Shown here in pieces: positions 4,768-58,460 of a DNA stretch of 64,000 nucleotides (its first letter is position 1; each line of letters opens with the position of its first letter). Position numbers and translations under genes: made by a program. The notes under the pieces were generated by a model that was not told the DNA's origin, did not search any database, and saw nothing but the letters and a program-made list of their open reading frames with translations. Source of the stretch: Octopus vulgaris (lineage: Eukaryota); NCBI GenBank assembly GCA_951406725.2, contig OX597815.1, forward strand, positions 127,100,001-127,164,000, in the 5' to 3' direction.

Positions 4768-4780
4768 TTTATTTTTTATT
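4768..4780 (-). promoter_or_regulatory. Two AATAAA polyadenylation signals
   Basis: tttatt at 4768-4773 and 4775-4780, about 40-50 nt downstream of the relic stop. The AT-rich context weakens this evidence. Confidence 0.4.
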
Positions 4781-4818
4781 TCCTTTTAAACTGACAACTA
4801 AATATAACATTTAATTCA

Positions 4819-5053
4819 TTACACTTCAGTGGCTTCAACATCTAAATTATGATTTAAATTATCAAAAGAAGTAATACTCTTTACTCTCTTTTACTCTTTT
4901 ACTTGTTTCAGTCATTTGACTGCAGCCATGCTGGAGCACCACCTTTAGTCGAGCAAATCGACCCCGGGACTTATTCTTTGTAAGCCCAGTACTTATGTTT
5001 ATTTCTGTTTATTTCTGTATCACATTCTTTAATCACAGTGTCCAACTTGAATA
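4819..5053 (-). pseudogene. Relic C-terminal coding segment of the cadherin (FKLDTVIKECDTEIN-[SINE]-KSITSFDNLNHNLDVEATEV*)
   Basis: Coding-like text in a shifted frame on both sides of a SINE fragment, ending T-E-V-stop and followed by AATAAA signals. Confidence 0.55.
4872..5000 (-). mobile_element. 5'-truncated SINE 3' end inserted in the cadherin terminal exon
   Basis: AAGAATAAGTCCCGGGGTCGATTTGCTCGACTAAAGGTGGTGCTCCAGCATGG...GAAACAAGTAAAAAGAGTAAAAG; related copies near 25075-25240 and 55990-56280. Confidence 0.8.
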
Positions 5054-5148
5054 TGGTGAATCATCATCAAATTTGTTACGGTTCTGTAGTTTAATATAAG
5101 TATTTTGGGGATGCGTAACACCAATATCATCATTAAAGGCAGGGTTTA
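5033..5148 (-). CDS. Cadherin terminal coding exon as currently framed (LNPAFNDD...FDDDSPYSSWTL*)
   Basis: Acceptor TTATTTTAG, phase 1, NPAF motif, TGA at 5033-5035. Confidence 0.6.
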
Positions 5149-5242: not shown

Positions 5243-5281
<39 letters not shown>

Positions 5282-6875: not shown

Positions 6876-6916
6876 GTTTTTTAGTGGTTTTAGCTGCTCT
6901 TAATTCCCTGGAATAT
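6876..6916 (-). CDS. Cadherin juxtamembrane cytoplasmic exon ((R)YSRELRAAKTTKK)
   Basis: Strong acceptor TTCTATTTCTCTTCAG, donor GTAAGT, 41 nt, phase 2/1; basic RxLxAA motif. Confidence 0.72.
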
Positions 6917-11965: not shown

Positions 11966-12090
11966 CTCTGATTACCTGCATGAGACAGAAGCATCGTAAT
12001 GATGAATATGCAAACCAACATCACAGTGACTGTAATAATACTTGTGAAATTCTTTTCATTGCTGTTGGCAGTTCCAGGTGATTCAGGTCG
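11966..12090 (-). CDS. Cadherin transmembrane exon (RPESPGTANSNEKNFTSIITVTVMLVCIFIITMLLSHAGNQR)
   Basis: Acceptor TTGCTCTTCTAG, about 20 hydrophobic residues, donor AG|GTTGGT, 125 nt, phase 0/2, fitting both neighbouring exons. Confidence 0.7.
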
Positions 12091-19761: not shown

Positions 19762-20090
19762 TAGATCAAGAACAAACATTAAGGACCAAGTATATGAAAT
19801 GCAGAATAGACAACACTCCCGAGAGCAACAAATACAGAATGTGTGGTGAGATGGGTGAAACAGTGGTACATTGTTAGTGAATGCTCAAAATTGGCACAAT
19901 GTGAATACAAATGATGGCATGACAATGTGGGAAGAATGATCCATTATGGGCTCTGTAGAAATCACAGCCTACAAAGAACAAAGACGTGGTATGAGAAAAC
20001 CCTAGAAGAAGTCACTGAGAATGAAAATTAAAAAATCTTGGGGGATGTAATGATTCAGTGTGATCACCTGACCAGACATATGGAACTACA
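19762..20090 (+). mobile_element. R4/Dong-like LINE fragment (CCHC region)
   Basis: QEQTLRTK..RMCGEMGETVVHIVSECSKLAQCEYK.WHDNV. Confidence 0.75.
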
Positions 20091-20183: not shown

Positions 20184-20696
20184 CTCTGGTATAGTGATTG
20201 TATCATTTGGCTTTTCAAATTTTGGATTGTTGTTAATGTCAGTAATATTAATACAAATAGATGTAGTTGAACTTAATGGTGGATTTCCTTGGTCTTTTGC
20301 AGTAACATTGAAACACTTGACTCCTATTTTATTTGTTAAATCTGAAGCAATACTCAGAACACCTGTACCTGGATCCATTTTAAATAACACAGATTCCTTT
20401 CCTTGTAGTGAGTACTGAACTTTACCATTTTCTCCAATATCTTCATCAGTGGTTGCAACAGTCAAGATAATTCCTGTTGATATGCTTTCTTGTACATTTT
20501 CAGAATATTTATCAGACTTAAATACTGGAGGATTGTCATTAACATCAGTTACATTGATTAAGATTGTAGTTGTATTTTCTTTCCATCCAGGTTTTTGAAA
20601 ATTATTTTTATAGTCATAGTTATCTTGAGCAGTAATAATAACAGTGTACTTATCCACAGCCTCTCTGTCAAGTTCTGAAATTACCACTATTTCTCC
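20184..20696 (-). CDS. Cadherin exon L (GEIVVISELDRE...DVNDNPPVF...DINNNPKF...TITIPE)
   Basis: Acceptor ATTTCAG, donor GTAAGT, 513 nt, phase 0/0; inside ORF 20109..20711. Confidence 0.93.
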
Positions 20697-22251: not shown

Positions 22252-22565
22252 AGTTATTTTGTCAATTTTAAAAGGAGAATTTCCACCAGAAACTGTCAGA
22301 GTATAACTAACATTCGCATGTATTCCTATATCTTTATCAGTAGTTGTTATTGTAGTAATTGTGGTATTTACAGAAGTGTCTTCTGGTACAGGTAATATAG
22401 ATACAAGGTTCTGAAATTCTGGGGCATTATCATTAAAATCTTCAACAACAACAAAAACTGTTGCCGTGGAAGATAATGTTGGTAACAAGGAATCACTGGC
22501 CACAACATTAAATGTGATGTTTGGATTTTCTTCACGATCCAGCTCTGTTTTTAATGAAATTTCAC
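22252..22565 (-). CDS. Cadherin exon K (EISLKTELDREE...DFNDNAPEF...IDKIT)
   Basis: Acceptor TTTTCAG, donor GTAAGT, 314 nt, phase 1/0. Confidence 0.92.
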
Positions 22566-22966
22566 CTGAAAATTGAAAAAATTTACAATAGATAAAAATG
22601 CCATTTTATAGACAAAAATAAAATACTTTAATTTTCTGAGTAGTTAATTACAAATGTTAACCAAGCCAACAGTCATACTGAATAGAAGTACTTATTTCTT
22701 CATATGGTTCCTTGAAGCAATGAAGTAACCTCTAAATAATAATTCAATTTGCTAAATATAAAAGTCAAATCTCCTTCAAATCATAATCTGTAGTCTTGAA
22801 AACCTGGACATGTTATATAATGCATACCAATGCTCAGGAGAAAGAGAAGATGGTCATTGCTGGAATACCTTTAATCATTGGTCTGCTCAATTTAAAGATG
22901 ATCTGAAGTTAAACAACACCAGTGGTCCCCTTCAAGTAAATTCTTCCCCTATCTTCAACCTTGAGA

Positions 22967-23830
22967 TATGTGAGGTCTGATCAATAAGTATTTGGACTGT
23001 TGCCATAGTAACAAAGCTAGAGCACACAGAGTGAAGCCACTTAGTAAAGATCGGCTTTCAACTCTGCTGTGCATATGTACTAAGTTTTAATGTTCTAGAT
23101 CACTTCTGCTTTTTACAGCAGTGCTTGGAAGGAAGGTGTGTAGCATGTAATCATTGCATTAACCATGACAGAGAAAGTTGTCATGGTGATACCTGCTCAG
23201 AGACCTATGTAAAGTTGCAGAAAGTGTATGGAGAGGAGGTTATGAGCTACATGCACGTCTATGTGTGATTCCAACATTTCCTAGATGGCCAAAAAAATGT
23301 CAATATTGACATTCTGGGAGACCTACAACCAATAGAAGTGAAAAAAACATCGCAGATGTGTATACAGCTGTGAGGAGAAATCATCAAATCACCATCCATG
23401 AGTTATTAGAGGATGTGCAGATTAGTTACAGTTCAGTTCAGTCCATTATCACTGAAGATTTGGGTATGAAATGCATGTCTGCCAGGTTTGTACCAAAACT
23501 ACTTTCAGCTGACCAAAGGACACTTGGGTTTCAGTTGCACAAGATCTTGATTATGTTATGAATAATGAAAAGGTTTTGAAAAATTGTGTAGGCCTCTGAG
23601 CAGGTATCACCAAGCTTTTGACAAAATTTGATGCAAATTCTCTGCTCAACTTTCACAGACATGGTCAATACAACGATCACACATTACACACCTTCCTTTC
23701 AAGCACTTCTGTAAACAGCAGAAGTGAGCTTGAAGTTAAAACTGCATGCACAGCAGAGTTTATGGTCAATCTGTGCCAAGTGGCTTCATTCTGTGTGCTT
23801 TAGCTTCATTACTATAGCATCAGTCTATGT
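22967..23830 (+). mobile_element. Internally deleted mariner-like element with long (~180 bp) inverted ends
   Basis: Transposase N-terminal relic (GRPTT..HQITIHEL..SARFVPKLL); ~22995-23170 inverted at ~23660-23826. Confidence 0.75.
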
Positions 23831-23849
23831 ATGTTCCTGAACAGAACAA

Positions 23850-24455
23850 ACCAAAGCAAACAGTTGCTACACTAGCTTTCAATGATCAGTGGGACAAACC
23901 ACAAAAGACATTTCATTGTGTAATCAAGGAGAACGTTTTATTCCTTGTTGCTTCTTTTATTTAGCTATTGGAAATAGATACCAGGTTATCTAATAATTGG
24001 ATTTACCATTTTATTTGCTGGGACAAAGAATTTGCTGGCGCAGAGAATTTCACCCTTGAAAAACCCCACAAGACTGGTGAGATTAATGCCATTAATGATC
24101 CATTGAAGGTCAGCATTGCAGGAAAGACAAGAAACAAGAAGATTCCAGAGAGTGAAGAAAGGGGTGTTGGATGCATCAAGAGTGGTAAGAGATGGAGAGA
24201 GACATGAAGCAGGGGGGTTGCTTTAGAATAGAGGTTGTACAAGGCTAGCCAGCTCCATGAAGCAGAGACCATTACAGTAGCAAGAGAAAAGACAGGTAGC
24301 AGATCAGTATGTTTGAGGTCCAAAAGCTGGAGTGTCAAACAGCTTTCTCTGGAAGCAATCCAGTATATGAGTATGCATAGCAGTATCGCTGTCTCATGTG
24401 GGAGCAATATTCTATTGTAGACCTCATTTGAACCTTGTAGATGGTTGACTAGTAT
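23850..24455 (-). mobile_element. APE-type LINE (CR1/L2/Jockey group) 3' fragment
   Basis: Relic TIYKVQMRSTIEYCSH..LDCFQRK on the minus strand. Confidence 0.55.
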
Positions 24456-24462
24456 CATATTC

Positions 24463-24499
<37 letters not shown>

Positions 24500-24698
24500 A
24501 AGAGAGAGAGAGAGATTTATCAAATGTCTCAAGCGTTACTATTCAAAAGTCCATTTAAGGTATTGCAGAGATGTAAATTTACGTAGTAAGACCATATTAA
24601 CATTAACGGTTATTAAAATTTCATAAAGTACAACACACTAATTACCTTGAAACTAGAAAAAAGTAGTTAAAATAGAGTAAAAGAAAATAGATATGTAC

Positions 24699-24899
24699 CA
24701 GTTTTATCGTTAATGCCAAACTTGTTAGAACTGTCGAGAATTTTATATGTTACAAAGTCATTTTTGTCATCATCAGTGGCTGTAAGTGTTGCAATAATGC
24801 TTCCGACAGGATAGTTTTCAACCAAATTTAGTAATGTAAAATTTTCTCTAAAAACTGGGTAACAATCATTTATATCCTTGATTGTAATTGTCAAAAATC
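24699..24899 (-). CDS. Cadherin exon J (FLTITIKDINDCYPVF...ATDDD...NDKT)
   Basis: Acceptor TTTCCTCAG, donor GTACAT, 201 nt, phase 1/1. Confidence 0.9.
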
Positions 24900-25254
24900 C
24901 TGAGGAAAGAAAAAGAGAGTACTTTGCGATTAATTTAGAAATTATCATTTTTTCCAATAGTTCATTGTATAATTAATTCATTAAAGGATTTAAAGTTTAT
25001 CAAATATTCCTACTATATTTTATGCTCTATTTTATAACTGTAAATATGAAGCAAAAAATTATTGAAAAAATTCTTTTACTTGTTTCAATCATTTGACCAT
25101 GCTAGACCCCAAGACTTATTCTTTGTAAGCTTGGTACTTATACTACCAGTCCATTTTACTGAACTGCTATGTTACAGAGACGCAAACACATTAACATTGG
25201 TTGTCAAGTGATGGATAGGGGATAAACACAGGCATACACAAACGAATATATATA

Positions 25255-25909
25255 TTAAAGACTAAAAAGAGTAAAAAACTACAGAAGGCTTGTGTTATAT
25301 GGTTAAAGAATATATTTAAATCGTTATCTTAGAAAAATGTTATAAAATTTTGCGTATAGTAACATAGGTTTTGGAGAAATAACCTGTTTTGTATTTTCTT
25401 TTCAAATTTCTCAAATTTTTTAACCTATATTGTGTCATGTCTTTGCTATGTTGTGAAATATGGAGTTCAGGAATTTTTTCCGGTATAAGGGAGACAATCA
25501 AACATGTTGGGAATGACTAATTTAACATGATCTGGTTTAGAAGGAATAGAATGTTACAGGTGGTTAGGTTTTGCTTTATATTTTTCAATGAGGGGAATTT
25601 CCTTATTTAAAAATGTTAGAAATGGTTAAGTTTTGGCTTATATTTTTCAATTGGCACATTGATAGAATGGAAAGATAATAAATTGTGGTAGTAGTTGCTT
25701 TGAGCATTTCTAGCGAAGACATGACACGATATAGGTAAAGAAATTTGAGAAATTTGAAAAGAAATTACGAAATCGGTTATTTCTCCAAAAACTATGTTGG
25801 TATACGCAAAATTTTATAACATTTTTCTAACATGACGGTTTAAATATATTCTTTAACCATGTAACACAAGCCTTCTGTAGTTTTTTTCACTATTTTTTGT
25901 CTTTTATAC
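25255..25909. repeat. Long inverted repeat (~195 bp arms, ~260 bp spacer) between TA runs
   Basis: 25255-25448 is the reverse complement of 25711-25909 with scattered mismatches. Confidence 0.85.
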
Positions 25910-27269
25910 ATCCAACCACGTTCTTTCACATACCAACTCTCTCACCTATATATATATATATATATACCGGAGTAAACACATAAATGTGAAACAAGGTGGA
26001 AAAAAGACTACGAACAGGAACGTGAAACTCCGAGTAACAGGTTTTGTTGAATTTCTGCTGCTTTTAAATAGTGTATATATATGAGAAGAAAATGGATATA
26101 ATAACAATGGGAAACTCGTGGTTTTTGCTGGTATGCCTTTAATTTAATTAGATAACAAAGAAGGAAGAAGCAGAGATGAAGGTAGCATTTATGATCACTT
26201 CAATTTTCTGGTTTAAGTAAATCTCTTCGGAATGTGAGTATAGATAGATGCATCAGTTAGGATGCGAAAATAATTGATACATATGTGATGGTAAAATAAA
26301 CAAAAGTGGTAATTCATTAAAATATATATATATATATATTTATATATAAACCGTCCAACCCACGCTAGCATGGAAAGCGGACGTTAAACGATGATGATGA
26401 CGAGAAGGAGGAGGATGATGATACGAATTTATCCCTAGCTTGAGTAATGTATGCTCATTTTAACAAGTACTGCATACTATGAGCTTTAAAATGAAAAGAC
26501 AAGTGTTGAAATTATATGCTTATTTTTTAAATTTAAAACAGGTGCTGCAGGAACATTTTTATTTGATCAAGGAGAAAGAGACAGTGGGACAGAAAAAGAT
26601 GATGAGAAACCGCTAGTTTTTGCAATAAGTTACTGAGTAACTGTAAACATACCCTAAATATTTGACTTTACCATTGATTTTAGATAATATTGGTTTAGAA
26701 AATTAGTATGTATAAACATTTCCAAGTCAATATATAACGTTATTTTGTTATTACAATTTTGTATATTTATTTGGGTAATTAATATATATATATATATATA
26801 TATATTTACAACATTTCTAAAAATAGCCCAACAATTACTGCCTTGGCCAGGGTTAAGATACAGGACTCTTGACATGTCCAACAAAGCGTGACGCCTAAAC
26901 CAATCAGCTTAAGTAATTGAGTGATACTACACACTGATTGGTCAGAATACAGTTTGCAAAACCTAGCAATCTGGAGCCCACACAGCTGTATTTAAGGCAC
27001 AGATTCAATCATCTCGCTACAGTCAAAAATTGTGAAGCATGACTGTCACCACTACTTCATGAACATGAAGATTGCAGAATTTAATGCATGAAAGTACTAG
27101 TTCAATCAGAATGAACATTTAACATTCTATTATATTATATTATCTTATATCATTATGAGATTGTAAATAAAATGTGAAAATCAGACAAGGTTGGAATTCC
27201 TTTTATTAATGTATTCTTCTATACACAATCACACACACCCGTATATCTATCTATCTATCTATATATATA

Positions 27270-28330
27270 TAATATTAGGGAATAAATTATTATTCCAACC
27301 TTACAGGTAAAATTCAGTATAATAATATTAGACTGAACTTCGTAATATATAATATGTAATATATGTATATAACTAATTTAGAGACGAATCACCATTCCAC
27401 AACTCAGTGAATGAAGAGCGCGTCCAAAACCATGTTGTGAGACATATACCATACAAAATACTAATCTAAAATGTTAATAATATATACTATTGAACAGTAA
27501 GATTATTACAATCATATAATATTTAAGAGCAAATACTTTTAAAATCACAGCGAATACCATACAAAGAAATATTCATCACAAAAATATTAATCTAAAATCA
27601 AAAATAGTATAAATTGAACAATAAAAATTAATACAATAATATAATGAATAAAAGTAAGTACTTGTACATTGACTACGCGCATTTCATGGCTGAATTAGGA
27701 CTATATAAAATCATATAATAAAACCATATCCAAGTTCATTAGAACGGGAGAATGATTTTACTCCCAGAGATATTATTAGCTGATAGAAATTTAATTAACT
27801 GCCAAGATAAACGTAATATTAAATGTAGGCATAAATTAAATTATTTATATGATAAGTTTAGATGATGTATTGATTTATTAAAATCCATGTAAAGTTACCC
27901 ATTTATAGTTATGATTAGTAGTGTTAAATACATATAATTAGCTTAGAATACACTGTAGACATTACATTATTATATATAATTGGAATAAATAATTACCTTT
28001 TTACTAATAAAGAATTCAACGATAATATGTGTATTGTTACAATGTTTTATAGCATTATTTACGTAATACATAAATTTCGTACGTGTTATAGTTATAATTT
28101 TTGTAGATTTAAAAGTTTTAAGTATTTTAAATTTTCAATAAATAATTTACTTTAGGTAGACCTTTTTTCGATAATTTCGTTATTATTAAAGTAAATTTAA
28201 TATGTATTTATCTCTGGGTAATGAACGCCATATTTATCACGTGACTTTTAGTATAAATGTTAAAGTACTCTTATTTCGGTTTAATCAACAGTAATTCGCC
28301 GGCCGATAAGTCATGTTTTTAAAAATTTAT
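27270..28330 (-). mobile_element. AT-rich degenerate probable Penelope-like element
   Basis: Starts at a (TA)n run; GAAATGCGCGTAG-type terminal motif; composition like 2700-4700. Confidence 0.4.
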
Positions 28331-28440
28331 TCTTAACAATATCCCAGTACTTAACTGGTACTTAATTTATTGACCCTAAAAGGATGACTGGTAAAGTTGA
28401 CCACAGTGGAATTTGAACACAGAACATAGCTACAGGCGAA

Positions 28441-28775
28441 ATAATAATAATAATAATAATAATAATAATTGTGTACAGTGCTCAGGTGCACTACAACTCA
28501 TCTAAAGTGTATATATAATCAGGTGTAGTTTCGGCGGATTTCGGAAAGCATGAGGGCCTTAAAGGATGCAGTGTCATGGCAGTCAACAACTGACGCAGGC
28601 AGTTTATTCCATGCTTCAGCAACTCTGAGCGTGAAAAAATGTTTCCGAAAGTCATGGGAGCTCTGTTGTTTTCTGACTTTGTAGGCATGTCCATGTGTGT
28701 TAGACACATGGAGATCAAAAAGGTGTTCAGTGTTGTTGTTGGTGAGGTGGTTGATAACTTTGTGGGTGTTTACCA
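28441..28775 (-). mobile_element. CR1-clade LINE 3' end with (TTA)n tail
   Basis: NTHGHAYKVRKQ..FRKHFFTLRVAEAWNKLP. Confidence 0.88.
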
Positions 28776-28848
28776 AGTTAAGTGTATGAATAACAATAAG
28801 AAGTTTATTATAATAAAGAACATTCGCATAAGAGATATATTTCCTTAC

Positions 28849-28984
28849 CTGTTGCTGTTCCAACTCCCACAACAGTATTCTGATCTGATACTTCAACTTT
28901 TAGTATGATACGCTCAAATGTTTCTCTGTCTAGTTTTTCCTTTAGAGTAATATTTCCCGTATTGTGATCAATCTCAAAATATGG
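28849..28984 (-). CDS. Cadherin exon I (PYFEIDHNTG...LDRET...VGTAT)
   Basis: Acceptor CATTTCAG, donor GTAAGG, 136 nt, phase 0/1, LDRE motif. Confidence 0.9.
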
Positions 28985-29539
28985 CTGAAATGGATTGCAT
29001 GATTATGATTAGCATTTTCTTTTGGTTTCTATGAATATGATGCCAGGATTTTTTTTAACTCCGAAATAATTATGGGTGAAGTTGGTAGACAAGAACTGAA
29101 AGAAGCTTGTCATGCATGTGTGTGTGTGTATGTTTGCGTGTGAGAATGTGTTTGTGTGTGTGTGACTGTGTCTGTGTGTATCCAATGGCCTTGACATCTC
29201 GTGATGGATGTAAATGAACATATTCTTCAATCTTCCATGGAAACGTAACTGGCCATAGGAAAGTATTACCTTGCTTGGAACAGATGATGGATAGCACTGA
29301 AAAGAGCATCCAGCAGCAGAAAATCTACCACAATGAATTCCATCTGGTTCATGCAAAAATTGGAAAATGGATTTTAAACCAATTAACTGAGCCAATAATA
29401 CCTAATCTGAGAAGGAATTAAATTCTAGATTGTTTACTAACTTCTGTTAAGGCTTTTAAACACAACTCTACTAAATTTGGCCTCTTGAAAAAAAAAACTG
29501 GCCAACAACGGATTCTTGGTCACTTGACGTGGTAGAAAC

Positions 29540-32500
29540 AGTTGGTGCTTTTTACATGCTACCGGCAGGGAAGCCGGTCAAAGCGGAGCTGGCATCGGCC
29601 ACGTTCGGATGGTGCTTTTTATGTGCCACCGGCATGGGTATCACAACTACAATTTCCATTTGATATTTATTTTGATGTTGATGTACTTAACTCAATAGGT
29701 CTCCTCAAATACAGCAGGTCACCCTGCGATCCAAGGTAAGCGCAGCAGGCCGTCCTGCGATCCAAAGTACTTTGGATGGGCTGGGGTTGTTATGTGAAGC
29801 TGGTGGAGGAAACAGTCATGAACTCACGTTATTTGTCAGATCTTCGCAGTCATAGCATATCTCCAGAGATCTCGGTCTTTCGTTATTGCCTCTGTGGGGC
29901 CCAATGTTCGATGGTCATGCTTCACCACTTCATCCCATTTCTTCCTGGGTCTACCTCTACACCGGATTCCTTCAACTGTTTGGGAGTGGCACTTCTTCAC
30001 ACAACTCTCCTCATCCATCCGTAGTACATGACCATACCAGCGCAAACGTCTCTCTTACACACCAGATCTGATGCTTCTTATGTCCAACATTTCTCTCAGG
30101 GCGCTTACACTCTGTCATGTATACACACTGACATTACACATCCAGCAGATCATGCTAGCTTCATTTCTTTTAAGCCTACGCATGTCCTCTGCAGCCACAG
30201 CCCATGTTTCACTGCCATGAAGCATGGCAGCTCACACACATGCGTTGTACAATATACCTTTCACTCTGAGTGAGAGACCCTTTGTCACCAGTAGGGGTAG
30301 AAGCTTTCTAAACTTTGCCCAGGCTATTCTTTTTCTAGTGGTGACACTCTCTAAGCATCTACCCCACTACTAACTTAGTGACCTAGATAGCAGAAGCTAT
30401 CAACTACTTCTAGTTTCTCCCCCTGGAGTGTGATGGAATCTGTTTTCTAAGTATCTGTGGTGTCTAATTGCCCCTGTGCATCAGCTGCACATGAAAGCTA
30501 TCTTGTGTGTTAATTTTCCTTTGATGTTGCTGCACCTCTTATGTGTCCATAGCTTACACTGGGTGCATCTTATGGAGTTTCTACCTACACCTTTCCTACA
30601 GATCGAGCAGGGCCACCTGCCCGAGGGTGTGTGTGCTGAGTTCGCCTTTCTGCTTACTATAACTTTGGTCTTTGCTACATTTACTCTAAGGCCCTTTGAT
30701 TCTAAACCTTGCTTCTACACCCGAAATTTCTTTTCTAGTTCCGGTAGTGATTCTGCTATGAGGGCCAGGTCATCAGCATAGAGGAGCTCCCAGGGGCAAC
30801 CCATCTTGAATTCAATTGTTATTGCCTGGAGGACTATGATGAATAAAAGGGGACTGAGGGCTGAACCTTGGCGGACCCCTACTTCTACCCAGAATTCTTC
30901 ACTATACTCATTGCCAATCCTAACCTTACTAATGGCCCCTCTGTATAGACCCTGTACAGCCCTTATTAACCATTCGTCAATCTCCAGTTTCCGCATCGCC
31001 CACCAGATAATGGATTGGGGGACCCTGTCAAAGACTTTCTCCAAGTTCACAAAAGCGAAGTACAGGAGTTTATCTTTAGCTAGGTATTTCTTCTGCAGTG
31101 GTCGAACCAGGAATATGGCATCAGTAGTGCTTCTACCCGGCACAAAACCGAACCGCATCTCATCTAAGCATACTCTCTCCCTAATGAGATGGGCTATGAC
31201 CCTCTCCGTGAACTTCATCACCTGATCCAGCAGTTTGATACCCCTGTAGTTATTTCTATCTAGAGCACCCCCTTTACCCTTGTAGCAACTGACTATGGTG
31301 CTGCTATGCCAGTCATTGGGTATAATTCCATTATGAACTACCTGGTTTACAATGCGGGTGTCTAGGCCATAGCCCACATAACCAGCTGTTTTAAGCATCT
31401 CAGCAGTGATTCCTGATGGACCGGGGGCTTTTCCTGGTTTCATACCCTTAATTGCTTTATCTACTAGGGAGCTGTCTATTGGGATAGCTGGTCCCTCTAC
31501 TGGGTCAACATTAGGCAGGCTCTTCTCCTCCCATTCATTCTCCACATTCAGCAGTCTTTCATAAAACATTAAAAGTAAGTGCACCATCATCCATGCGGAC
31601 GCATTTCTCTCCTGTGACATCACAATTTTCTCTCATACACTGTTTAACAATCCGAAATACCTCAGTTCTTTGGTCCTCACGTCGCTGGACATTGGCAAAC
31701 TTCTTTTCCACTTTGCCCTGGCTATGTATACCGCCCGGCCTCCCTTTTGGCTACCTGGTACAGTTCCATGCTACCCCCACCCTTCCAGGGCTTCCAGGCA
31801 TGTTTCTTTGCTCTAATGGCTTTGTCTACCGTACTATTCCACCACCACGTAACTCTAGGTGTGGAAGGGACTTTGCACCATCCACAGACTTGGTCTGTGG
31901 CACTCAGCAAGCTGTCCCATAGAAATTTCGAGTTACCTTCTATGTCCGACGTCTGTAGCTCTTCCTCCCTCTCTTTAAATTTCTTGATGATGATCTCCCT
32001 AAATCTCTGACCATGTGAAGGGTTCTTTAGCTTCCAAATCCTTCTTTTCTGGATTGGTCTGCTTCTTTGTATCCTTCTGGCCTCGATCCTAAAGTCACTA
32101 ATGACCAGCCTACGTTGGGGGGTACATTCTTCACCTGGGAGGGTCTTTGTATTTAAGAGCAACCTTGCGTCCCGCTGTCTGGTGAGGATGAAATCAATCT
32201 GGCTAGCAAAGTCCCCTGATTGATAGGTTATAAGGTGGCTGTCTGGCTTCCTGAAGTTAGTACTGCAGATTAAAAAGTTACATGCATCACAGAACTCCAG
32301 TAGCCTAGTTCCCTCATTATTTCGGGTGCCAATACTATGGCTACAGCGTACCCCAGTGAAGATATCAGATTCTTGCCCAACATGCCCATTAAAGTCTCTA
32401 GCCTCAAAGATGAGGTCATTGCCACTCGTCTTTGAGGTAGCCTGTAGAAGGGTATCATAAAAGTGATCCTTCTGATCATTTGGTAGCCCTGAATGTGGGG

Positions 32501-32645
32501 CATAGGCGGAGATAATTGTAGCTGTACTGTTCTGCAGGACTAGCCTGAGCTTAAGCACTCTATCACATACCCTGACAACCTCTATGACCTTATCTACTCA
32601 TTTCTCTGCCAGGAGTATGCCAACACCCCCTACACCATCCACCTT
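29540..32645 (-). mobile_element. RTE-clade LINE, near-complete APE-RT ORF with disablements
   Basis: APE motifs IISAYAP, DFNGHVG, SQIDFIL; RT motifs NYRGIKLL, FGFVPGRSTTDAIF, GVRQGSALSP, YADD; C-terminal WYGHVLRM..RGRP. Confidence 0.93.
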
Positions 32646-32879
32646 CTGTATAAAAGATAAACTGGGACTAAATAACAAGAACAACAACTAACACCTTTTA
32701 CCTTCACAGTCAAGTGATTAATATTAGAATTGTCATTGGGCTGTAAAATACACTCCAACTATGCAAGTGTTTTGAATTTGAAAAATATAAAAATTAGTGA
32801 GAAGTAGGCCATAAAAACTTTGCTAAACATTCTGAAAAACAAGTTCTATTTCAAGCAAAAAAATCCAAAAATGTCTTAC

Positions 32880-33316
32880 CACGATAGTATTTTTATTGAC
32901 TTCTCTTCCTTTTCCATTTATTTCAATTGTCTCTTGTGAAATATTGAAAATCAGCTTACTATTCAAGTCCTTGTCTGTAGCATTTATTGAAGTAATATAA
33001 GAATTAATGGTTATGTTTTCATAAAGTTCTATATTTGTTTTACCCAGTATCAGTTCTGGTGTTTCATCATTAACGTCTTCTACAATGACATTTACTTCAG
33101 TAGTGGCTGTTTTAGATGGAGTTCCTCCGTCAGTGGCAAGAACGGTGAGATTGTAAAAGGATTTATCTTCACGGTTTAATTTACTGCTGAGAAAAATACT
33201 TCCATCCTCTGAATTTATGCGAAAGACACTGGTTTGTGTTTTTAGACGGAAGTTCACCCGATTGAATGGACTTGTCTTATCATTATCTTTTGCAGTAATG
33301 TTTAAAAGCCAACTAT
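32880..33316 (-). CDS. Cadherin exon H (SWLLNITAKDND...DVNDETP...GREVNKNTIV)
   Basis: Acceptor CCTTGCAG, donor GTAAGA, 437 nt, phase 1/0; inside ORF 32823..33368. Confidence 0.92.
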
Positions 33317-34628
33317 CTGCAAGGAATATAATTAGAGAATATAAGAAGACAATTTTTACATGTTTCATTTACTAGATGTTACAATGGACTGATATTGTAA
33401 ACCTTCTTTTCACAGAGTTAACAATTTGTACCTTGTTACTGACATTATGCTGTCTCCATGGCGAAGACAGATAACACTTGCTTATGCAGTCTACCGGGAT
33501 GTCAATAGATATTATATGCAGCAGTACCTATTGATGAATGTTTCACCTATAACAAAATAACTGGCTTCTAGCAAAGCCACAAATATAATGAGAAGAAACA
33601 ATCAAAGGGATCTAACTAAATACCATAAGGCCTTTATTTGACACCCTGCCAGTTTTGTAACATAACCATCTTTATTAGATAATTGGTGATTGTTTCATTC
33701 ACTTAAAAGCATGGAAGGTAGACACTACCATGAGCATAGCTTGGAAATAACTGATTAGTAGAAGTGTATACTGTGATAGTTGCATTGGGTTGCTGATCTG
33801 ATGTCTTGATATGTGTATAGAACGCTCAAAGGAAGCCTCGTGCAACCAAATGGAAATCATATGATGAGAAATGAGAGAGCTAGCAGCCATAAAAAGGAGT
33901 GTTATAGGACAACATGGATCTTTGTAGATTTCATCACTGTCTACAATCTTGTTCCAATTATTTTCAAATTTGGTATATGGATTAAATTTTGTATACTAAT
34001 TATGAAAATGATATTCATTTTCCCTATAAATCCATAATTAAAAAGTTATTAGCTTCTAAAATTTGCAAAATTTGTTTATTTTAGTCTACCAGAAGTGAGT
34101 ATTTTACACATGACCATGGTGAAGAACTGTGTTTCCATAGTACCGAAAGCAAAGAAGCACTAAGTGTTCCATAGCTGATTGCAAAGTACTTTGTTTCCAT
34201 AGTAAGTAATGATGGTGCATGTGTGCACAAGGAGTTTATTTTCGTAACAGAAGGAATTCATTTCTAGACTGATATAGAGATTTTAGAACAGTAACAAGAT
34301 GGCCGCAACTTTCGTTCTTGAATTTTTTAACTAATAAATGTCTGTTTTAAGCAATGTTTTGACAGTTATTTCTAGCAACTCATGTTGGTTTGTTCACAAT
34401 TTTAAAATATTTAATTTGCTCGAGAATGATTTAATGTTTTTACTGTTTTCACTGTTAACTCTGCTTGTGTATATTTTAATGTTTTGACTCTTATTTCTAG
34501 CAAGTCCTGTTGGTCTGTTCATAGCTTTGAAATATTCAATTTGCTCGCATATGTTTTAATGCTTTAATGTTTTAATGTTTACTGTAGCTACTTTAATGTC
34601 TTGACATGCTCCCCACCCCACCCCATGC

Positions 34629-34788
34629 TACAGGTGTGCAAAATTTGATAATTTTTCAGAATTTTCAGCCAATCAGTAAACAGTGTGTTCACTATCTCTT
34701 CCATCATTAGATATGGAAGAAATAGTGAACACACTGTTTACTGATTGGCTGAAAATTCTGAAAAATTATCAAATTTTGCACACCTGTA
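34629..34788. mobile_element. 160-bp palindromic MITE-like element (Tc1/mariner-like TA-CAGG...CCTG-TA)
   Basis: 67-bp perfect arms (34629-34695 and 34722-34788), one mismatch, 8 more pairs, 8-nt loop. Confidence 0.85.
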
Positions 34789-35019
34789 ACATTTTCACAA
34801 AATTTTTCTGGAATAAATTAATAAAAAATTCAGATTCAGCCTCAAAAATACTTCTATATGATACATTAGAAGATTTTTTTTAAAGATTTCGACATGCTGT
34901 GATGGAAAACACAAAGAACTGAGAACACTACTAGAAACAGTACAGCGGGATTCTCGAAAAGTGAGCTGTGTAAATTGCAGTTATGAACATTCAACATTTG
35001 TCTTATAAGAGTGAAACAT

Positions 35020-37130
35020 AACACATTGTGATGAGGATGACAACTGGAAAACATTCAAACTTGAACAACTTGGAGGAAGCTAGAGCCTGGCTGATACAGT
35101 TTGAAGCAAAAATTTAATGCAATGACATTGAAGATGTTAAAAAGAAGCCAACATTTCTTTCTAACTGTGGAGCCATAATGAAGTTAAAGAATGTTCTTTT
35201 CCCAGTAACCCTTCAGAATGCAACATACCAACAAACAATGAATGCATTGCAACAACTAGTGAAGCCAAAGGAGAAACTGTTAATTGCAGAAAGATTAAAA
35301 TTATTGGAACTGAAGCAACTGGAAAATGAGTCAACCAATAACTCCCTTCTTTGGATTAATTTTCAAGCTTCTTTCTGCCATTTGAATAGGTTGATAGAAA
35401 ATCCAGAAGAAGAGATCATGTAACTCATTTTCATTGCGGGGTTATTGTCAGCAGAGGTAAAGTTAGAAATTTTGAATCAGTTACAGTTAGAGTCAGGGTT
35501 AGGTTCAGTCTAAAATGAAATACACTGAAAGAACTGCTCTTACATCCACCATAGAATCAGAAACACTGTTTGTGAGTAGTTGACAAACAATAACAAACTT
35601 TAATGTCAACAAGAATACCCCCATGGTAGTAGTAGGATTCATAGAAGAAGTTTCGTGAGAATAATGAATTCACAAGCGGTCCCCGACATCCTGCATGCAT
35701 ATCCCAAGTGACGGGACGCCCTGTTTGCCACGGAGTCTCTACAGACACAGGGATAGATCGAATTCGAAGCTGCCTGTTGCTGATCAGACGCCTCTTGGAA
35801 TTTTCACCAGAGCCCCATTGCCCAGGCTGTGGCCCTAATACCACTCGGTGCCAGACCAATCTGCCTTGGGTTTCCCACCCAGGAACCAAAGTTCCCGACA
35901 GCATAGCTCTGACACTGCCCGTTTACACCACCCTACCGCTTTGAGGAGGGGTTGGACTTTAAGGTTGGCCTATGCAGATGACATCACACGCTTGGGCTCT
36001 AACCAGGCAGATGTCCAAGATACTCTCAAAAGGGTGCATGCGGTAGAAGCTGCTGTTGGTCTTCAGATCAATGCTGGCAAAACCAAAGTGATGATGTCTC
36101 TGGTCGCAGCAGATGACTGGTAGCCAATCGTTTGTGAGGGTGTGGAGCTGGAGGATGTGGTTCCAAAGGGCTAGGGCGCAGCTGAGGTCGAGCAACGCAT
36201 AGGTGCTGCCAGATCCACATTCGTGCACCTCCAGTGGTGCCTGTGGGACAGAAGAGAGATCTCCTCGGTGACCAAAGGGCAAATCTACCAGGCCATCGTT
36301 CGTACTAACCTCCTCTATGGTTGTGAAACATGGCCTATGAGGGTAGTCGATCAGCAAAGACTGGAGGTGTTCGAAAATGACTGTCTCTGCCGCATTCTTT
36401 ACTGCCAACGCATTGATCAGGTTCCTACAGCCAGTCTTCATCATCGCCTGAATCTCCAGCCCCTCCCTGTGGTGCTTCTACAATGGCATTTAGGGTGGTT
36501 CAGTTATGCAGTCCAGAGGGTGAGATAATTTGTGATGTCCTCCTCCCACATCCACTTCCCAACTGGTGCAAATGCACAGGCAGGCAGCTGAAGACCTTGG
36601 CAATGACGATAAAGGAGGACCTCTCCGAACTCTCAGGTCTTCTGGTGGTCAGTCTGCACAGATGGAACTGTGAATGGCTCACTATCTCCAGTGATCTCGC
36701 ACAGGACCGTCAAGTGTGGGCTGCCATGGTTCGTGATGCCGTCAGGACCAGAGAAGAAGCCGGCTCAACCCACCCAGGGTGAAAGCCATCACAAGTACAA
36801 AGTACTAGTAAATAAGAATACCCCCAGTAGCAGTCATGACATTATAGTGAAATGTCAAAATTGTGGGCATAGACACAAAGTTCATGCATGTCCAGCATAT
36901 GGGAAAAATTATAATAAATGTGGTAAATTAGGGCATTTTACAAGATTTTGCCAATACAGAAATGATTGCTGTATGGACAAAATAAATGTATCTCTGAGCA
37001 AGACTGGATCTGTCAACAGTTTGTTGCTAAACGTGAACAACAATGCGAGTGCAAATAACATGGGTTTTTGCAAGTGCTTTATAAATAACAGAGGCATAAG
37101 ATATGAAAGTGGATACTGGGGCAGCTTGTT
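35020..37130 (+). mobile_element. Ty3/Gypsy gag-protease remnant split by a LINE
   Basis: PTFLSNCG..KLLIAERLK..KQ..ES; after the LINE, CQNCG..H..CPAYGK..CGKLGHFTRFC and MKVDTGA. Confidence 0.78.
35675..36805 (+). mobile_element. RTE-clade LINE insertion with an inverted 5' segment
   Basis: 35955-36805 plus strand: LAYADD, GLQINAGKTK, LLYGCETW, CAAGTA-type tail. 35675-35945 is GC-rich and reads as 5' UTR/APE start on the minus strand. Confidence 0.75.
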
Positions 37131-38619
37131 TGATAGGTTCCATTATCATTTGCTCTTAGTATTGCTAATCCTCTCCCCTTTCATCCTCTCTGCTAGTCAT
37201 AGTACTATCACTCTGTTTCTGCCATCATACTCTTGCTTCTTTTACCCACTCATCCTGGTTCTTCTGTTATCACTTTTTCTCCTATCAGCCTTGGTCACAT
37301 TGCCTAGAACGAATGGTGATACAGTAGAGTAGCAAGGATTCAAAGTATCTTGAAGAGGCACAAGACAGACTCACTACTGCTGGTGTCACAATATTATGCA
37401 CCCAGAAAATTCAGTGAAATGGGTGGTAAACAAGTGGAGACAATAAACAGTTGAGAAGACAACTTCTCTAATGTTGATGCCATGAAAAAATGCACCAACT
37501 ACACTTTGTAAAGCACTTGGTGTTAGAAAAGGCATCCATCCACAAAGACTATGTCAAATATAGAACACTTGAGTGAAATGTAGAGGATAATAATTCTGGA
37601 TTAGAAGTGACAGGAATCAGAACAACCTGGATGACAATCAGAGAATTTGAATTTTAAATTTCATGGAGATAAAATTCAGTGTTTGTATAATTAATGGTAC
37701 ATACTTCCCAGTCAGATTATACATAAACTACAAATGTGCAGAATTAATTATCTAGTGGCACAGATTTTATATTTTTCTTGTGTGTCAATCAAAGTACTGC
37801 ACTAAGATTAACACATCTAACTTCAACTACAATCACCATGACGTTATCATCAACATAAGACGACATAACAGTCTACTTCAAGCAGAATATCTCACTAAAA
37901 TACCCATTTTCAGTTGTAATAAGTTCAGAAACAATGCATATAGAAATGGTAATCATTTACTGCTCTAACACATTCGTTTTGTAATTGGAACAGTGCCACA
38001 AGCTTCCTGAATTAGTGAATCAAATCAAATTTCATCACAACAAAGATATATTAAGAATTGTTCCATGTGCCTATTTCATACAGAATGATGTTCAAAATAA
38101 ATTGAAGGAAGGTTTCAGTAGTAACCCAATGACCTACTCAGGGTTACAGATTGTTATTAATACTTTCTTACATAAAGAAATTAAAAATATTATGACCTTA
38201 TTGTCACTTAATATTTAAAATTCAAAAGGGCAATGAATTAGCAGAAACAATAGATTGTCAAACAGAATTCTAATAAGGATATGGGCACACTGTTAAGATT
38301 TCCAGACTGAGTTCAAAACCTTATAGCCAGATGGCTACATGGTTAAGAAGCTGATTTGTAATCACATAATTCCAAATTCATTTAAGCTGATTCTCTTACT
38401 AACTGTGTTAGTATTTGTTTCCATTATCTTCATAACCTAATTTATCTGTTAGAAGCTTCTGTAGTTACTTCTTCCCAAAGCATCTCCTTTGTCATTGTAC
38501 CAGATGATAATAACTATATAGCTATGCCAGTTACTGGGTATGACACCTCCCTTTATAACCTGGTTGATTGTGTAAGTGACTAGCTTGAGCCACACTTCAC
38601 CAGGAAGGGTCTCTATATG

Positions 38620-39290
38620 GTGTACATGAGAAATATGGATTCAAAAATGTGTTCTGGGTTCACAGGCAGGTTGGCAGTGAATAAAATTTTTGTATGGGGA
38701 CTACATACAAGAGTGGTTAGTAGTCATAGCAATAACAAAATAAATTCTTTTCAATGCTTGAAAGCCTCTATAGATAGCTTCAGTTACCTAGGAAACCTAA
38801 TCAGCATTGGAGAAGGATGCTCTGAAAGTATAGTCTTTGTTGGCAACAAGAGAATTCTCTCTTCTAGCAAGGAGTAGATTGCATGCGGCTTGTGTATGAA
38901 GTAAAATATTGCATGGTAGAAAGATTTGGGCACTTAATACAGAAGATGTGCAAAGACTGATAGAAAATATAGCGAGCATGTTCCACTGTATGTGTAATGT
39001 TAGTATGCATGGTACAGCTGAGTTGAGATATAAACTAGGTATAAAAAGAATATCTTGTAGTGTGAAAGAATGACAACTGTGTTGGTACAGACATGCATAT
39101 GGAGGATAACAGATAGGTGTAGAATTGCCAGAATGTCTTGAGTGGAATAAAACTATGAAAGAGGAATACCATGCAAGATATTGCAAAAAAATTATAAAAA
39201 CTCATCATTTTATAAAGGATGAGGACAAGGGAAAGTAAGAAATGATGAGATCCAAAAAATGGTATGAAAAGGATCTGTCCAATCATACCT
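38620..39290 (+). mobile_element. Old RTE LINE 3' fragment
   Basis: DSFSYLGNLIS..GCSESI and LHG..W relics; same family as 29540-32645. Confidence 0.65.
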
Positions 39291-39808
39291 GTAATATGTG
39301 TGTGTGTGTGTGTTGTGTATACTGATGCAAACTCAGCATGTCAAGTTGCGTCCCGTTATTTCAAAAAGTTAACTGAGCTGTTTGATAATTCCTGAATTCA
39401 ATGCAGTTGTGTAAAACCTTTGATGGCAGTGCCCCAGACTGACTGCAGTTTATTTACAGAAACTAGTAAAAGAATAACAGATGAAAATTGTGCAGAAGTC
39501 CATCATAATGGGGTAGTAGACTTAATGTCACCTGGATTAAGCTCTTGGGTATCCTTAGCAGAGTCCTTTCTGTTGAAAGCATTCAGCAACCTTTTAAAAG
39601 GTCTGCCATGCTACTTTTCCTTAATTAATAAAAGACATCACTAAAAGTTCTATAAAATAGACCATGCAATAAACTAGTATCACTTCTGCTCACTATATTC
39701 CTCCTTTCCAAAAACCAAGCTATGCTTGGTTAGAAGGAAACGCCATTTCAAAATTAATAGTGTAAAAATTAAAAACAATGAAAATATAATTAATAAATAT
39801 AAACAAAC

Positions 39809-39881
39809 CTTCAGTTAAATCTTCCTTTATTGATATATTGTAAAAACTTTCTTGGAACTGAGGCCCATTGTCATTTACATC
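39809..39881 (-). CDS. Cadherin exon G (DVNDNGPQFQESFYNISIKEDLTE)
   Basis: Acceptor TTCTGTAG, donor GTTTGT, 73 nt, phase 0/1. Confidence 0.88.
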
Positions 39882-40519
39882 CTACAGAACAGTTTAGAGG
39901 TAAAAAACACAGTTAGAAAAGTAAGCAAAGATTTGTTAAGAGGAAGCATTCAGCAATAACAATATCTTACATTATGAAAACAACAAACATACCATTGGCA
40001 CATTTTATACCTTGACTGTGCAACAGTTTAAATCTTCATGTCAATGCATCAGATATAAATTATCTAGGAGCATTTCTTTAAAGGAATATTATACTAGGAA
40101 TGACGTATATGAAAATATATAATTTTGTGTATATAACATAATTTTGTTGTGCACCAGTCTTTGAAATGACGTGTTTTAAAACATATTATCAGTTCAATTG
40201 TGGTATATCTTATACAGAAAACAACTTAATAGCAATGTAAGATTCATTATGATCTATTATAAACAAGATCACAGCACTGGAAAAAGTACCATGTGATATT
40301 TGTTCCAGCCCTTTACATTCTTAGTTTAAATCCTATTGAAGTTAACTTTGCCTATTATTCCACCGAGATTAATAAAATGAAGTACCACTCAAATACTGGC
40401 ATCAAAATAATCAATAAACCCCATCTATCAAAAATTGCTGGCCTTGTATCTCAGATTAAAAACAAAACAATATTAATATGCAATACTAGTCCTAAGAAAT
40501 ATAAGTCAGTTTTATAATT

Positions 40520-41445
40520 ATCAAGTGCAAGTCTTTTGTTTCCTGATTATCCAAAGATCTTTACTGGCATGACATTATACCAGACTCAGTGGTATGGAGG
40601 TATCAGAACACCTAATTTTTCCAGTAAGTTCAACAGGGCATTGATTACACTCCTAGAAAGTCCATGTGGTCAACTGCAAAAGATCTCCATGTACCAGAAG
40701 TTACAATCAGAAAATTTGTCCACGAAGACATCAGATATAAGTCTTATATGATGAGGAAAGGTCAATTTGTCCGAAAAAGCAAAAGAAAATCACTACATCA
40801 GATTTAAAAGGCTCTTAAACAAACTGAAAAAATCCAGTGGAAGAAGATTTGATTTGGTGTTTCTCAAATGAGAAAAACTTCGACCAGTGTCAAAAAAGTT
40901 AACAGAAGAAATGACAGATGGTTATGTGCAGACCCTTCTGAAGTTCCAACTGTTATGCATACAAATTTCCTGCAACTGTCATGGTTTTAGGGGTTGTCAG
41001 CAATAAAGGTCATGTGATGCCTCCTTACTTCTTTCCACAAGGCTTTAGAGTTAACTCTGCCACCTACATTGAAGTCCTGGAAATAATTGTTAAGCCCTGG
41101 ATAGACAGTGTATGCAATGGAAAGCCATATCTGTTTCAGTAAGACTCTGCATTATCACATATGGCTCTAGTAACAGAGGAATGGATGGCTGAAATTTTTC
41201 ATGATTACATAACCCCTAATATTTGGCCTTCTAATTCCCCAATCTATTGGATTATTACACGTGGAGCATTGCTGAAAGAGAGAGGTCAATGAACATGCCC
41301 ATAATACCAAAGATTCTATGAAAGCTGCCATAGTCAGAGTAATGTATAAAATGAATCAGGGCCACTTGATTCGAGCATGTAGATGATTTAGATTCCGTAT
41401 TTAGATCTCAGTTATTGAAGTTGAAGGTGGCTTTATTGAATAACA
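40520..41445 (+). mobile_element. Tc1/mariner DD37D (maT-like) transposase remnant
   Basis: FSNEKNFDQ, NRRNDRWL, GHVMPPYFF, FQ.DSA, WPSNSP..LDYY. Confidence 0.8.
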
Positions 41446-41504
41446 TTTTTTTGAAAAATAAAGTTATTATCTGTTATCATATATCTGTTTTTTATAAAGA
41501 TAAC

Positions 41505-42520
41505 AGTGGAACAGAGGATCACAACAGTGGCGTTGAGGAATTAAGAAACTCATGAGGAATTAACAAACTCACAAGGAATTAACAAACTCATGAGAATTAA
41601 ACAAACTCACAAGGAGTTGTGAAACTCACAAAGGGTTTATCATGCAAATTTTATGGTATACAGAATCGTAATATTATGGAAGATTTGTTGGCCAGTTTGC
41701 TTGAGTTGCGAAAAACAGCAAACAATAACAATTACTATTACAGCAACAAATGCTACAATTAATGAATAAGTCATCACAAAAGGCTGAAAAGATTATGTTG
41801 CACACTCAGTAATAGAATTTAAGTATAAAGCAGACAAAGGAGTCACCTTCGAGGTATATTATAGAAGATACAAAAAAATTTTCAATCAAGAGTGCAGCAG
41901 AACATGAGCATTACATCAATTACGTACTCCCAAAATAACCTTTTGACAGAAACTTTAAAAATACAATAGACATATTGTGTAAAGTTTTTAGCACAAAAAG
42001 CTTCTTGTTCATTACAAGCTGGAAATATTTGAATCTAAAAAAGAACAAGGACTACATCACATATGCTGGAAGAGTTAACAGAGAATGTGAAAAGTTCAGA
42101 CTGGATGAATTAACACCTGATATGTTCAAGTGCCTGATTTACTCAGAGACTAACTGCAGGAAAAGACACAGAAGAACAAGAATTCTTTCTTAGCCGGAAC
42201 AAAATCAAGCTGTAACCTTACAACAAGTGTCAGAAGAGTCTGAAAGAATAGTAAATTTAAGTAACAACACAAACAAAATTGAACATAAAGATGGCACCCA
42301 AGTGAAACGAGAGTAAACCAGGCAGAATAGAAATCAAATGTGTACTAAAATACAGTACAAACAGGACAAAAATCAGGAAACAAACCCATGTTTTGCATGT
42401 GGAGGTTTACACCTGATAAATAACTGCCCCTTTAAGAAAGAGGAATGTTTCCATTGTGGAAAATTTGGACACATAAAAGCACACTATAAAATCAAGATGG
42501 CAAGACATTGGATTACAACA
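41505..42520 (+). mobile_element. Ty3/Gypsy gag remnant, same family as 570-1773
   Basis: ACAACAGTGGCG LTR-end/PBS, ~21-bp tandem GAATTAACAAACTCACAA units, FRLDELTPDMFKCLI, CFACGG.H..CPF..CFHCGKFGHIKAH. Confidence 0.8.
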
Positions 42521-42640
42521 GTATGTATGTCATTATTCAGTTTTATTTAAAGATTTCTTGCCAATAAAGAAAAAGTCAGTTTCTAACCTAGATCCAAGGC
42601 TCCTTCGCTGGAATTTCAACATCAACAATGGGGTATTTTT

Positions 42641-42990
42641 GTATGTATGTATGTATGTATGTATGTATGTATGTATGTATGTATGTATGTATGTATGTAT
42701 GTATGTATGTATGTATGTATGTATGTATGTATGTATGTATGTATGTATGCATGCATGCATGTGTGTATGCATGCATGTATGTATGTATGTATGTGTGTAT
42801 GTATGCATGTGTGTGTGTATGTATGTATGCATGTATGTATGTAGTATGTATGCATGTATGTATGTGTGTATGCATGTATGTATGTATGTGTGTGTGTGTG
42901 TGTGTATGTATGCATGTGTGTGTGTGTGTATGTATTTATGTATGTATGTATGCATGCATGCACTCATGTATGTATGTATGTATGTATATG
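42641..42990. repeat. (TATG)n/(TG)n compound microsatellite
   Basis: Visible directly. Confidence 0.97.
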
Positions 42991-43069
42991 CAGATTTGTA
43001 TGTTTTATTTATGTATTCTCATGCATATAGTTGCATATCTTGACATGCTCATATATATTTCAATGATAA

Positions 43070-45110: not shown

Positions 45111-45156
<46 letters not shown>

Positions 45157-46884: not shown

Positions 46885-47118
46885 CAATACAGTGATATTA
46901 ACAATGGCAGTATCTTCCTTGACTGGTTTACCATTATCTTCAGCTTTGACTACTAACTGGATGACATTATGAGTCAGGCTTTCATAATCTATATTTGATG
47001 GAGTAATAATTCCATTTTGTGCATTTATGGAAAAACTGTTTGAAAGGCTTTGACTAGCATTTACTATTGAATATTTTACTTGAGAATTACCTGAATTCTC
47101 TTTATCAGCATCAGTTGC
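46885..47118 (-). CDS. Cadherin exon F (ATDADKENSG...IDYES...AEDNGKP...NITVL)
   Basis: Acceptor CACTATAG, donor GTGAGT, 234 nt, phase 0/0; not in the ORF track. Confidence 0.9.

Positions 47119-58417: not shown

Positions 58418-58460
<43 letters not shown>

Follow-up and report, generated by a model that had tools for sequence, protein, structure and literature searches.

An open-frame, truncated paralog in a cadherin-23-type gene cluster of Octopus vulgaris has lost its membrane-adjacent exons and its class I PDZ tail

Introduction

Vertebrate cadherin-23 (CDH23; USH1D; PDB 8TRI) carries 27 EC repeats. A membrane-adjacent domain has been predicted in CDH23 (bioRxiv 10.1101/460097). According to PMC2967513 its terminal ITEL is a class I motif and an internal harmonin site lies beside exon 68; PMC2928128 reports that ITEL adds little and that harmonin affinity is high without it. 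The Drosophila protein Cad88C has been named the USH1D ortholog (PMC2649435). Invertebrate proteins called 'cadherin-23' from Patella (P0108), insects (P0081, P0099, P0106) and a hemichordate (P0088) are the best colinear non-octopus matches to the genes described here (27–37% over ∼ 1,700 residues); they have a similar size and similar tail motifs, with the ends TTEI, TTEL or VTAV. In contrast to these, the octopus genome studied here has three tandem copies with fast amino-acid change among them. A search of titles and abstract openings in the literature found no report of an octopus cadherin-23 cluster; the supplementary gene tables of cephalopod genomes could list copies.

Two of the three copies, A and B, resemble CDH23 in their EC repeats, a membrane-adjacent region that matches 8TRI, one transmembrane (TM) helix, a cytoplasmic P-x-TN...NP motif, an internal L-x-x-A/V-I-x-E-x-D motif and a class I end (ATEV versus ITEL), but the octopus copies have ∼ 14 EC repeats, not 27. 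The third, gene C, differs from CDH23 in lacking the membrane-adjacent region, the P-x-TN...NP exons, the internal motif and the PDZ motif.

Results and discussion

A cluster of three cadherin-23-type genes

The window, the whole stretch of 64,000 nucleotides that was analysed (G000:C2:127100001-127164000), belongs to a genome of 2.8 Gb, and the surrounding 800 kb were also taken in. An exon map of this region, made with the P0121 protein as query, contains three cadherin-23/Cad88C-type genes lying head to tail on the minus strand (Table 1). The last exons of A and B are found at +460.7 kb and +179.7 kb (window coordinates), and the 3′ part of C fills the window. P0017, whose source name is Octopus vulgaris cadherin-23-like, is a 100% match on the window's chromosome. 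On BLAST ranks and the PDB match we assign the cluster to the CDH23/Cad88C type. Protein and DNA searches of the O. vulgaris genome, with the best candidates scored, found no fourth copy; the cluster has four assembly gaps, every one upstream of gene C, and the stretch from the window to +346 kb is gap-free. The gap at +346 kb (L043, G000:C2) could hide an unassembled copy; the 5′ exons of gene B were not found above +343 kb.

Statements on O. sinensis and O. bimaculoides are based on protein models. The EC repeats are recognized by Pfam PF00028, with 11 stretches in P0121 and 9 in P0005, the O. sinensis ortholog of gene C, to which the window exons are 91–100% identical. The match of the membrane-adjacent domain to PF23206 is weak in A (E 0.0056), and the region in B matches 8TRI with E 8.7e-14; the exons of this domain are absent from gene C. 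Paralogs A and B and the O. bimaculoides proteins P0062 and P0127 share the exon plan and the terminal exon of gene C, with DVEATEV intact, but have kept both the tail and the ten exons missing from gene C.

Table 1. Features of gene C and its surroundings. Positions refer to the window; + marks positions in kb beyond its start.
Feature	Position or protein	Strand	Remarks
Two AATAAA	4768..4780	-	4773 common to paralogs A and B
Relic segment 2	4819..4871	-	ends DVEATEV + TAA, old class I PDZ motif
SINE-like piece	4872..4996	-	3′ 125 bp of a ∼ 400-bp high-copy element, 5′-truncated
Relic segment 1, out of frame	4997..5045	-	LDTVIKECD, copy of the conserved motif; two derived AATAAA (5013, 5003)
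25-nt deletion junction	5046..5047	-	alignment to A and B; no indel in 4/4 runs
Terminal exon, still-coding part	5033..5148	-	38 codons, ends S-W-T-L, TGA 5035-5033
SINE-family 5′ part and presumed mariner-like remnants	6135-6560 and 7130-8050		last intron; intron before it
Juxtamembrane exon	6876..6916	-	41 nt, phase 2 in, phase 1 out
TM exon	11966..12090	-	125 nt, phase 0 in, phase 2 out; 50% identity to paralog A
Possible alternative last exon	19885..19968	-	stop after 27 codons; last exon of the O. sinensis gene model; secreted form predicted
Last ectodomain exon	20184..20696	-	A/B DNA likeness stops 10 nt into next intron; deletion breakpoint near 20174
Eleven further ectodomain exons	22252..63231	-	open, GT-AG; eleven more 5′ exons outside window, up to +153 kb
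Paralog A	P0121; +461 to beyond +664 kb
Paralog B	P0017, P0126; +180 to +346 kb

Gene C has lost ten exons and kept an open frame

The open frame of gene C comprises 1,321 codons in 26 exons, from +153 kb to 5033, with its sole stop at the end. All 26 exons (25 introns) have GT-AG ends and compatible phases. The main frame is free of disabling stops, frameshifts or splice changes of the pseudogene type; its sole shift falls three codons before the new stop, and both lie in the last exon. The frame includes a micro-exon of 12 nt (P-A-G-Q; L020, +117840 to +117829) whose splice sites are clean. At ∼ 20225, in the last EC linker, the window has one Asn codon fewer than the N4 run of A, B and the O. 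sinensis ortholog.

An earlier note, made from the letters of the window, had described all 12 ectodomain exons as intact. The 12 exons within the window are indeed open with GT-AG ends, but the ectodomain is incomplete, since eight exons are gone. They correspond to eight exons of A (residues 1175–1591) that encode about three EC repeats and the membrane-adjacent region. Of the eight paralog segments that separate the last EC exon from the TM exon, none matched positions 4000–20200 (best E 0.17), nor did either of their two middle cytoplasmic exons (best E 1.6). Ten exons have thus been lost in total, eight ectodomain and two cytoplasmic. The P-x-TN...NP motif is present in A, B and outgroups, and both of its exons are missing in gene C.

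Because the two cytoplasmic exons were deleted, the juxtamembrane exon of gene C lies just 1.7 kb from the terminal exon. It leaves in phase 1, whereas the last exon of the paralogs is entered in phase 2. A 2-nt deletion at the first bases of the gene C terminal exon changes its entry phase from 2 to 1, restoring the frame after the exon loss, and the old frame is then kept for 34 codons. The prior for a frame-restoring indel is about one in three, which counts against the weight of this repair. The TM exon (12090–11966) encodes a single helix, but its best 19-residue hydropathy is 2.77 versus 3.63 and 3.21 in A and B; this lower hydrophobicity counts against a live gene.

A different end is suggested by P0005, which terminates without a TM helix at the alternative last exon of Table 1 and is identical to the window in 27/27 residues there. 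This counts against a membrane form: the main product could be a secreted 11-repeat ectodomain, with the TM and tail exons a minor, dying branch. P0005 is a gene model, however, the exon overlaps a repeat-like match, and the RNA contigs described below extend further upstream of 5148 (196–218 letters) than the TM and juxtamembrane exons together. We regard a mainly secreted product as very improbable.

The O. sinensis proteins P0124 and P0125 have a C-type TM exon (88%) and juxtamembrane exon and likewise lack the membrane-adjacent domain. Unlike in gene C, their TM exon is joined straight to an earlier EC exon, and P0124 keeps both middle cytoplasmic exons and an intact B-type tail. They are gene models from a 46-kb scaffold, and no such copy was found in the O. 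vulgaris genome; their design may reflect recombination, an additional copy or an error of the models.

A 25-nt deletion and a SINE insertion separate the old tail from the frame

The terminal exon starts at 5148 on the minus strand, after a TTTTAG acceptor, and ends ...PYSSWTL, as the earlier note had read it. Its reading of the letters behind the stop also holds: the relic frame begins with LDTVIKECD at 5045, runs into a repeat with a TAA (4973–4971) and then gives ...DVEATEV followed by TAA (4821–4819), with AATAAA at 4780 and 4773. That this relic tail is beyond chance is clear from A and B, which carry the exon intact on the same chromosome and are alignable through the 3′ UTR at 79%. The uninterrupted tail that the note had proposed to search for in paralogs and relatives is found in A and B as well as in the models P0124, P0126 and P0132 of O. 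sinensis and P0062 and P0127 of O. bimaculoides. The postulated loss of an ancestral class I PDZ tail is thereby borne out; in gene C, ATEV sits behind two stops and no longer forms the end of the protein.

The nature of the lesion had been misjudged. Instead of a 1-nt frameshift, DNA alignment to A and B gives a net deletion of 25 nt (8 codons plus 1 nt); inserting a T near 5050 does restore the right frame but does not recover the ancestral sequence. Nor can the proposed order, frameshift first and SINE second, be upheld, as the changes are too few to rank the two events in time. The PDZ motif and the internal motif are both removed by the lesions.

Within the two conserved motifs of the relic, 6/10 changes relative to A are silent (20% expected, p 0.007) and 5/10 relative to B (p 0.034), for segments chosen after viewing; for the whole relic pooled, pN/pS is 0.49 and 0.82 against the two paralogs. 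Since the changes in these motifs are mostly silent, the tail was probably coding until late.

Relatives of the tail outside Octopus were sought by a profile search of 1.84 billion proteins, which returned eight matches at E up to 0.001; four are Octopus cadherins and two of the rest are unrelated repeat proteins. When the TM and tail part of A was used in a word-based search, B was the sole match. Neither the tail nor the internal motif of fish had a match among solved structures, in a library that leaves out short peptides. Two derived AATAAA at 5013 and 5003 lie 20 and 30 nt behind the new stop on the minus strand and could place the mRNA end where the SINE begins.

The inserted piece, which the earlier note had given as a SINE fragment of ∼ 130 bp with an in-frame TAA, is 125 bp long (4996–4872) and contains that stop. 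At 2/125 sites it differs from the majority of six close copies, which were picked for likeness. It belongs to a short, high-copy, dispersed family with a repeated 3′ tail, for which 40 other loci scored at 92–98%; there are 27 matches in 864 kb and a very large depth in DNA runs. A head with stretches that resemble A and B boxes by eye is shared by 8/9 copies, the window copy being headless. The Octopus tRNA-related SINEs (Ohshima and Okada, 1994, via PMC4824008) are alike in being high-copy, ∼ 400 bp long and in having a shared head and a repeated 3′ tail. In the present family, ARAGORN called no tRNA in 3/3 copies, and no clear target-site duplication flanks the insertion (≤ 3 nt, inside microhomology at both junctions).

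All nine aligned copies end in letters that yield K-S-I codons, so that these codons at the junction are SINE tail or microhomology; whichever their origin, the flanks are in frame once the insertion is removed. A 5′ part of the same SINE family is present in the last intron of gene C, and the intron before it contains transposase remnants, presumably mariner-like by their motifs. Just behind the 3′ end of gene C, positions 2450–4700 are G-skewed with ∼ 22% GC. The frames of this AT-rich stretch rule out a mitochondrial insert; it is a dispersed repeat with 75 matches at 70–97%.

RNA contigs splice at the terminal exon and read into the SINE

The earlier note had called for a check on a homopolymer error at the frameshift. 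No indel was found over 4997–5165 in 4/4 runs from four studies, and together with the alignment to A and B this rules out a one-base assembly error at ∼ 5050. Nine runs from three studies, which we guessed to be RNA, contained 32–44% of the sampled words, a share to which SINE words alone could contribute in part. The contigs of two runs taken as RNA on this guess (X7 and X14; studies P5 and P8) were aligned, as were those of X1 and X11; X17–X20 had small shares of the sampled words and were given no evidential weight.

The X7 and X14 contigs align from 5148 to 4967 and 4963, into the SINE, and have 196 and 218 further letters upstream, whereas the DNA contigs X1 and X11 continue past 5148 into the intron. 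This pattern is that of splicing at 5148 and read-through into the SINE. The terminal exon, whose use in the cadherin mRNA had been left to a check, is thus used in spliced RNA, and the SINE is retained in the contigs seen. By arithmetic only, the 196 letters of X7 equal 41 + 125 + 30, i.e. both upstream exons (166) plus a contig branch overlap; the 218 letters of X14 leave 52, one above the 51-nt exon end that is common to the last EC exon, A and B, a mismatch that counts against this reading. From these lengths we infer that terminal, juxtamembrane and TM exons are chained in RNA. X11 and X14 differ from the window at 2/152 sites, both amino-acid-changing, and because they carry both lesions, the lesions are older than the window and X11/X14 alleles. 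Behind the SINE there is no cover by RNA contigs, but DNA run X1 has the same hole, which makes these data silent on early polyadenylation at 5013/5003.

These contigs also bear on the possibility that the lesions are assembly errors, or that the SINE is spliced out as part of a cryptic intron, bringing ATEV back. The cluster does have four gaps, the frame would be restored by any of seven GT-AG pairs, rare forms are dropped from contigs, and 52 joints are outside their view. All four gaps lie upstream of gene C, though, with none from the window to +346 kb; 4/4 runs show no indel relative to the window, and the O. sinensis model has the same sequence right behind the breakpoint. The RNA contigs run past the possible donors and into the SINE, and 7/7 candidate acceptors are purine-rich, with 10–15% pyrimidine versus 60–95% in the 25 real ones, which speaks against cryptic splicing to ATEV among these pairs. 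The chance that either account is correct is close to nil.

The new C-terminus fits a loose class II pattern at a high chance rate

The earlier note had suggested a tail swap, in which the protein now ends in a possible class II PDZ ligand. In PMC1978516 the class II form is X-hydrophobic-X-hydrophobic, and the W and L of S-W-T-L fit it. The last four residues are identical in 4/4 runs, and divergence is higher in the still-coding tail than in the relic (26/84 versus 13/80 sites, p 0.03), as might be expected had the frameshift been kept for a new partner with a class II PDZ domain. Against this, 17% of 5,599 random stop-terminated ends from the window also fit this loose class II form and 26% fit some class, and the still-coding tail has a pN/pS of 0.94–0.96 against the paralogs. 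There is also a stricter class II pattern, the ELM form, which the W at −2 fails. W-T-L is moreover a shifted reading of the conserved L-D-S/T-V codons, and the runs compared are too close to show constraint. We judge a selected class II end highly unlikely; W-T-L would simply be a by-product of the frameshift.

The deletion also removes an internal motif shared with CDH23

The motif L-x-x-[AV]-[IL]-x-E-x-[DE] occurs in 9/13 aligned tails, namely four from Octopus, one from a relative, those of the limpet and the hemichordate and two fish CDH23; in the same alignment, the tails of three insects and a mite lack it. By chance it would turn up at a rate of ∼ 0.013 per 200 residues. In the fish proteins the motif adjoins the exon-68 insert. 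It is probably the site bound by the harmonin N-domain. In gene C it lies out of frame at 5045–5019 owing to the 25-nt deletion, as does ATEV, and on sequence grounds the lost motif is probably a second harmonin site. A search of the genome for the harmonin N-domain gave no match, and neither did its control.

By synteny and sequence, gene C appears to descend from a CDH23/Cad88C-type gene whose definition it no longer fits. Because four defining features fail, it is best called a derived, truncated paralog.

A live paralog or a duplicate in decay

We consider it rather probable that gene C is a live, shortened membrane cadherin paralog that has been uncoupled from its scaffold. Deletions and the SINE have cost this tandem copy ten exons and its tail end, yet one frame has stayed open; the terminal exon would be joined to the juxtamembrane and TM exons, and the tail would have been under selection until recently. 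The protein made would have ∼ 11 EC repeats, no membrane-adjacent domain, one TM helix and a predicted cytoplasmic part of 57 instead of 141 residues. It would no longer bind harmonin-type scaffolds and might act as an unanchored adhesion molecule or compete with A and B. There is nothing unusual in a duplicate being truncated or in a SINE landing in freed sequence.

Substitution ratios could also point to a transcribed duplicate in early decay, redundant with A and B, in which the deletions and the SINE became fixed and the exons are still open by youth and gene conversion. The pN/pS of gene C against the two paralogs is ∼ 1 in all parts (ectodomain 1.01 and 0.81, TM 1.7 and 2.2, coding tail 0.96 and 0.94). 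These values are not diagnostic because the full-length pair A–B also has an excess of amino-acid changes (pN/pS 2.7 in the ectodomain). By simple counting, non-silent versus silent changes between A and B are 32.5 versus 3.5 in the ectodomain (p 0.07) and 18 versus 1 in the TM exon (p 0.05), a hint of positive selection between these young paralogs.

The open frame has been used as an argument as well: the earlier note took the intact exons to favour a live gene. The observation extends to all 26 exons, but the argument is weakened by signs of gene conversion. Over 20174–64000, exons and near flanks are 94–99% like A and B, while many intron blocks are only 75–90% alike, and the ectodomain exons are ∼ 2% from A/B at silent sites. 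This suggests exon-centred gene conversion in the cluster, and stops could likewise be removed by conversion from A or B. Under neutrality the chance of no stop is 12–35% for the TM and tail exons; for the whole frame it is 37%, 13% and 4% at 0.65%, 1.3% and 2% divergence in a simulation of substitutions only. Decay would further account for four separate losses of conserved parts and for the amino-acid changes at both sites of the second allele.

On the other side, GT-AG ends and phase are preserved in all 25 introns, the 2-nt deletion repairs the frame, and the TM, juxtamembrane and tail exons are still open after ∼ 69 substitutions relative to A. Spliced RNA comes from two studies, and the O. 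sinensis ortholog is also open, with 96% identity over 1,229 residues. We therefore hold early decay to be possible but the less probable reading, and prefer the live, shortened paralog. Whether selection drove the stepwise loss of all anchoring parts is a separate matter. Such a loss would have produced a scaffold-free decoy that, in competition with the full-length copies, tunes adhesion between sensory cilia or microvilli, in a cluster whose ectodomains diversify under positive selection; we offer this tentatively and think it rather unlikely.

The locus constitutes a natural deletion series in the cadherin-23 family, with two full-length copies beside a spliced copy that is without every known anchoring part. 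If the protein is made, it offers a way to learn how a cadherin-23-type ectodomain works once freed of its scaffold, in an animal whose members of the family seem unstudied in the literature searched. If gene C is decaying, it is an ordinary duplicate being lost, and the SINE is usable as a marker for the O. vulgaris species group.

The differences between gene C and its O. sinensis ortholog are unevenly spread, with 34 in the first 230 residues (exons 3–8, +140 to +97 kb) and 12 in the next 1,000; the adhesive tip of gene C thus appears to diverge, or to convert, much faster than the rest.
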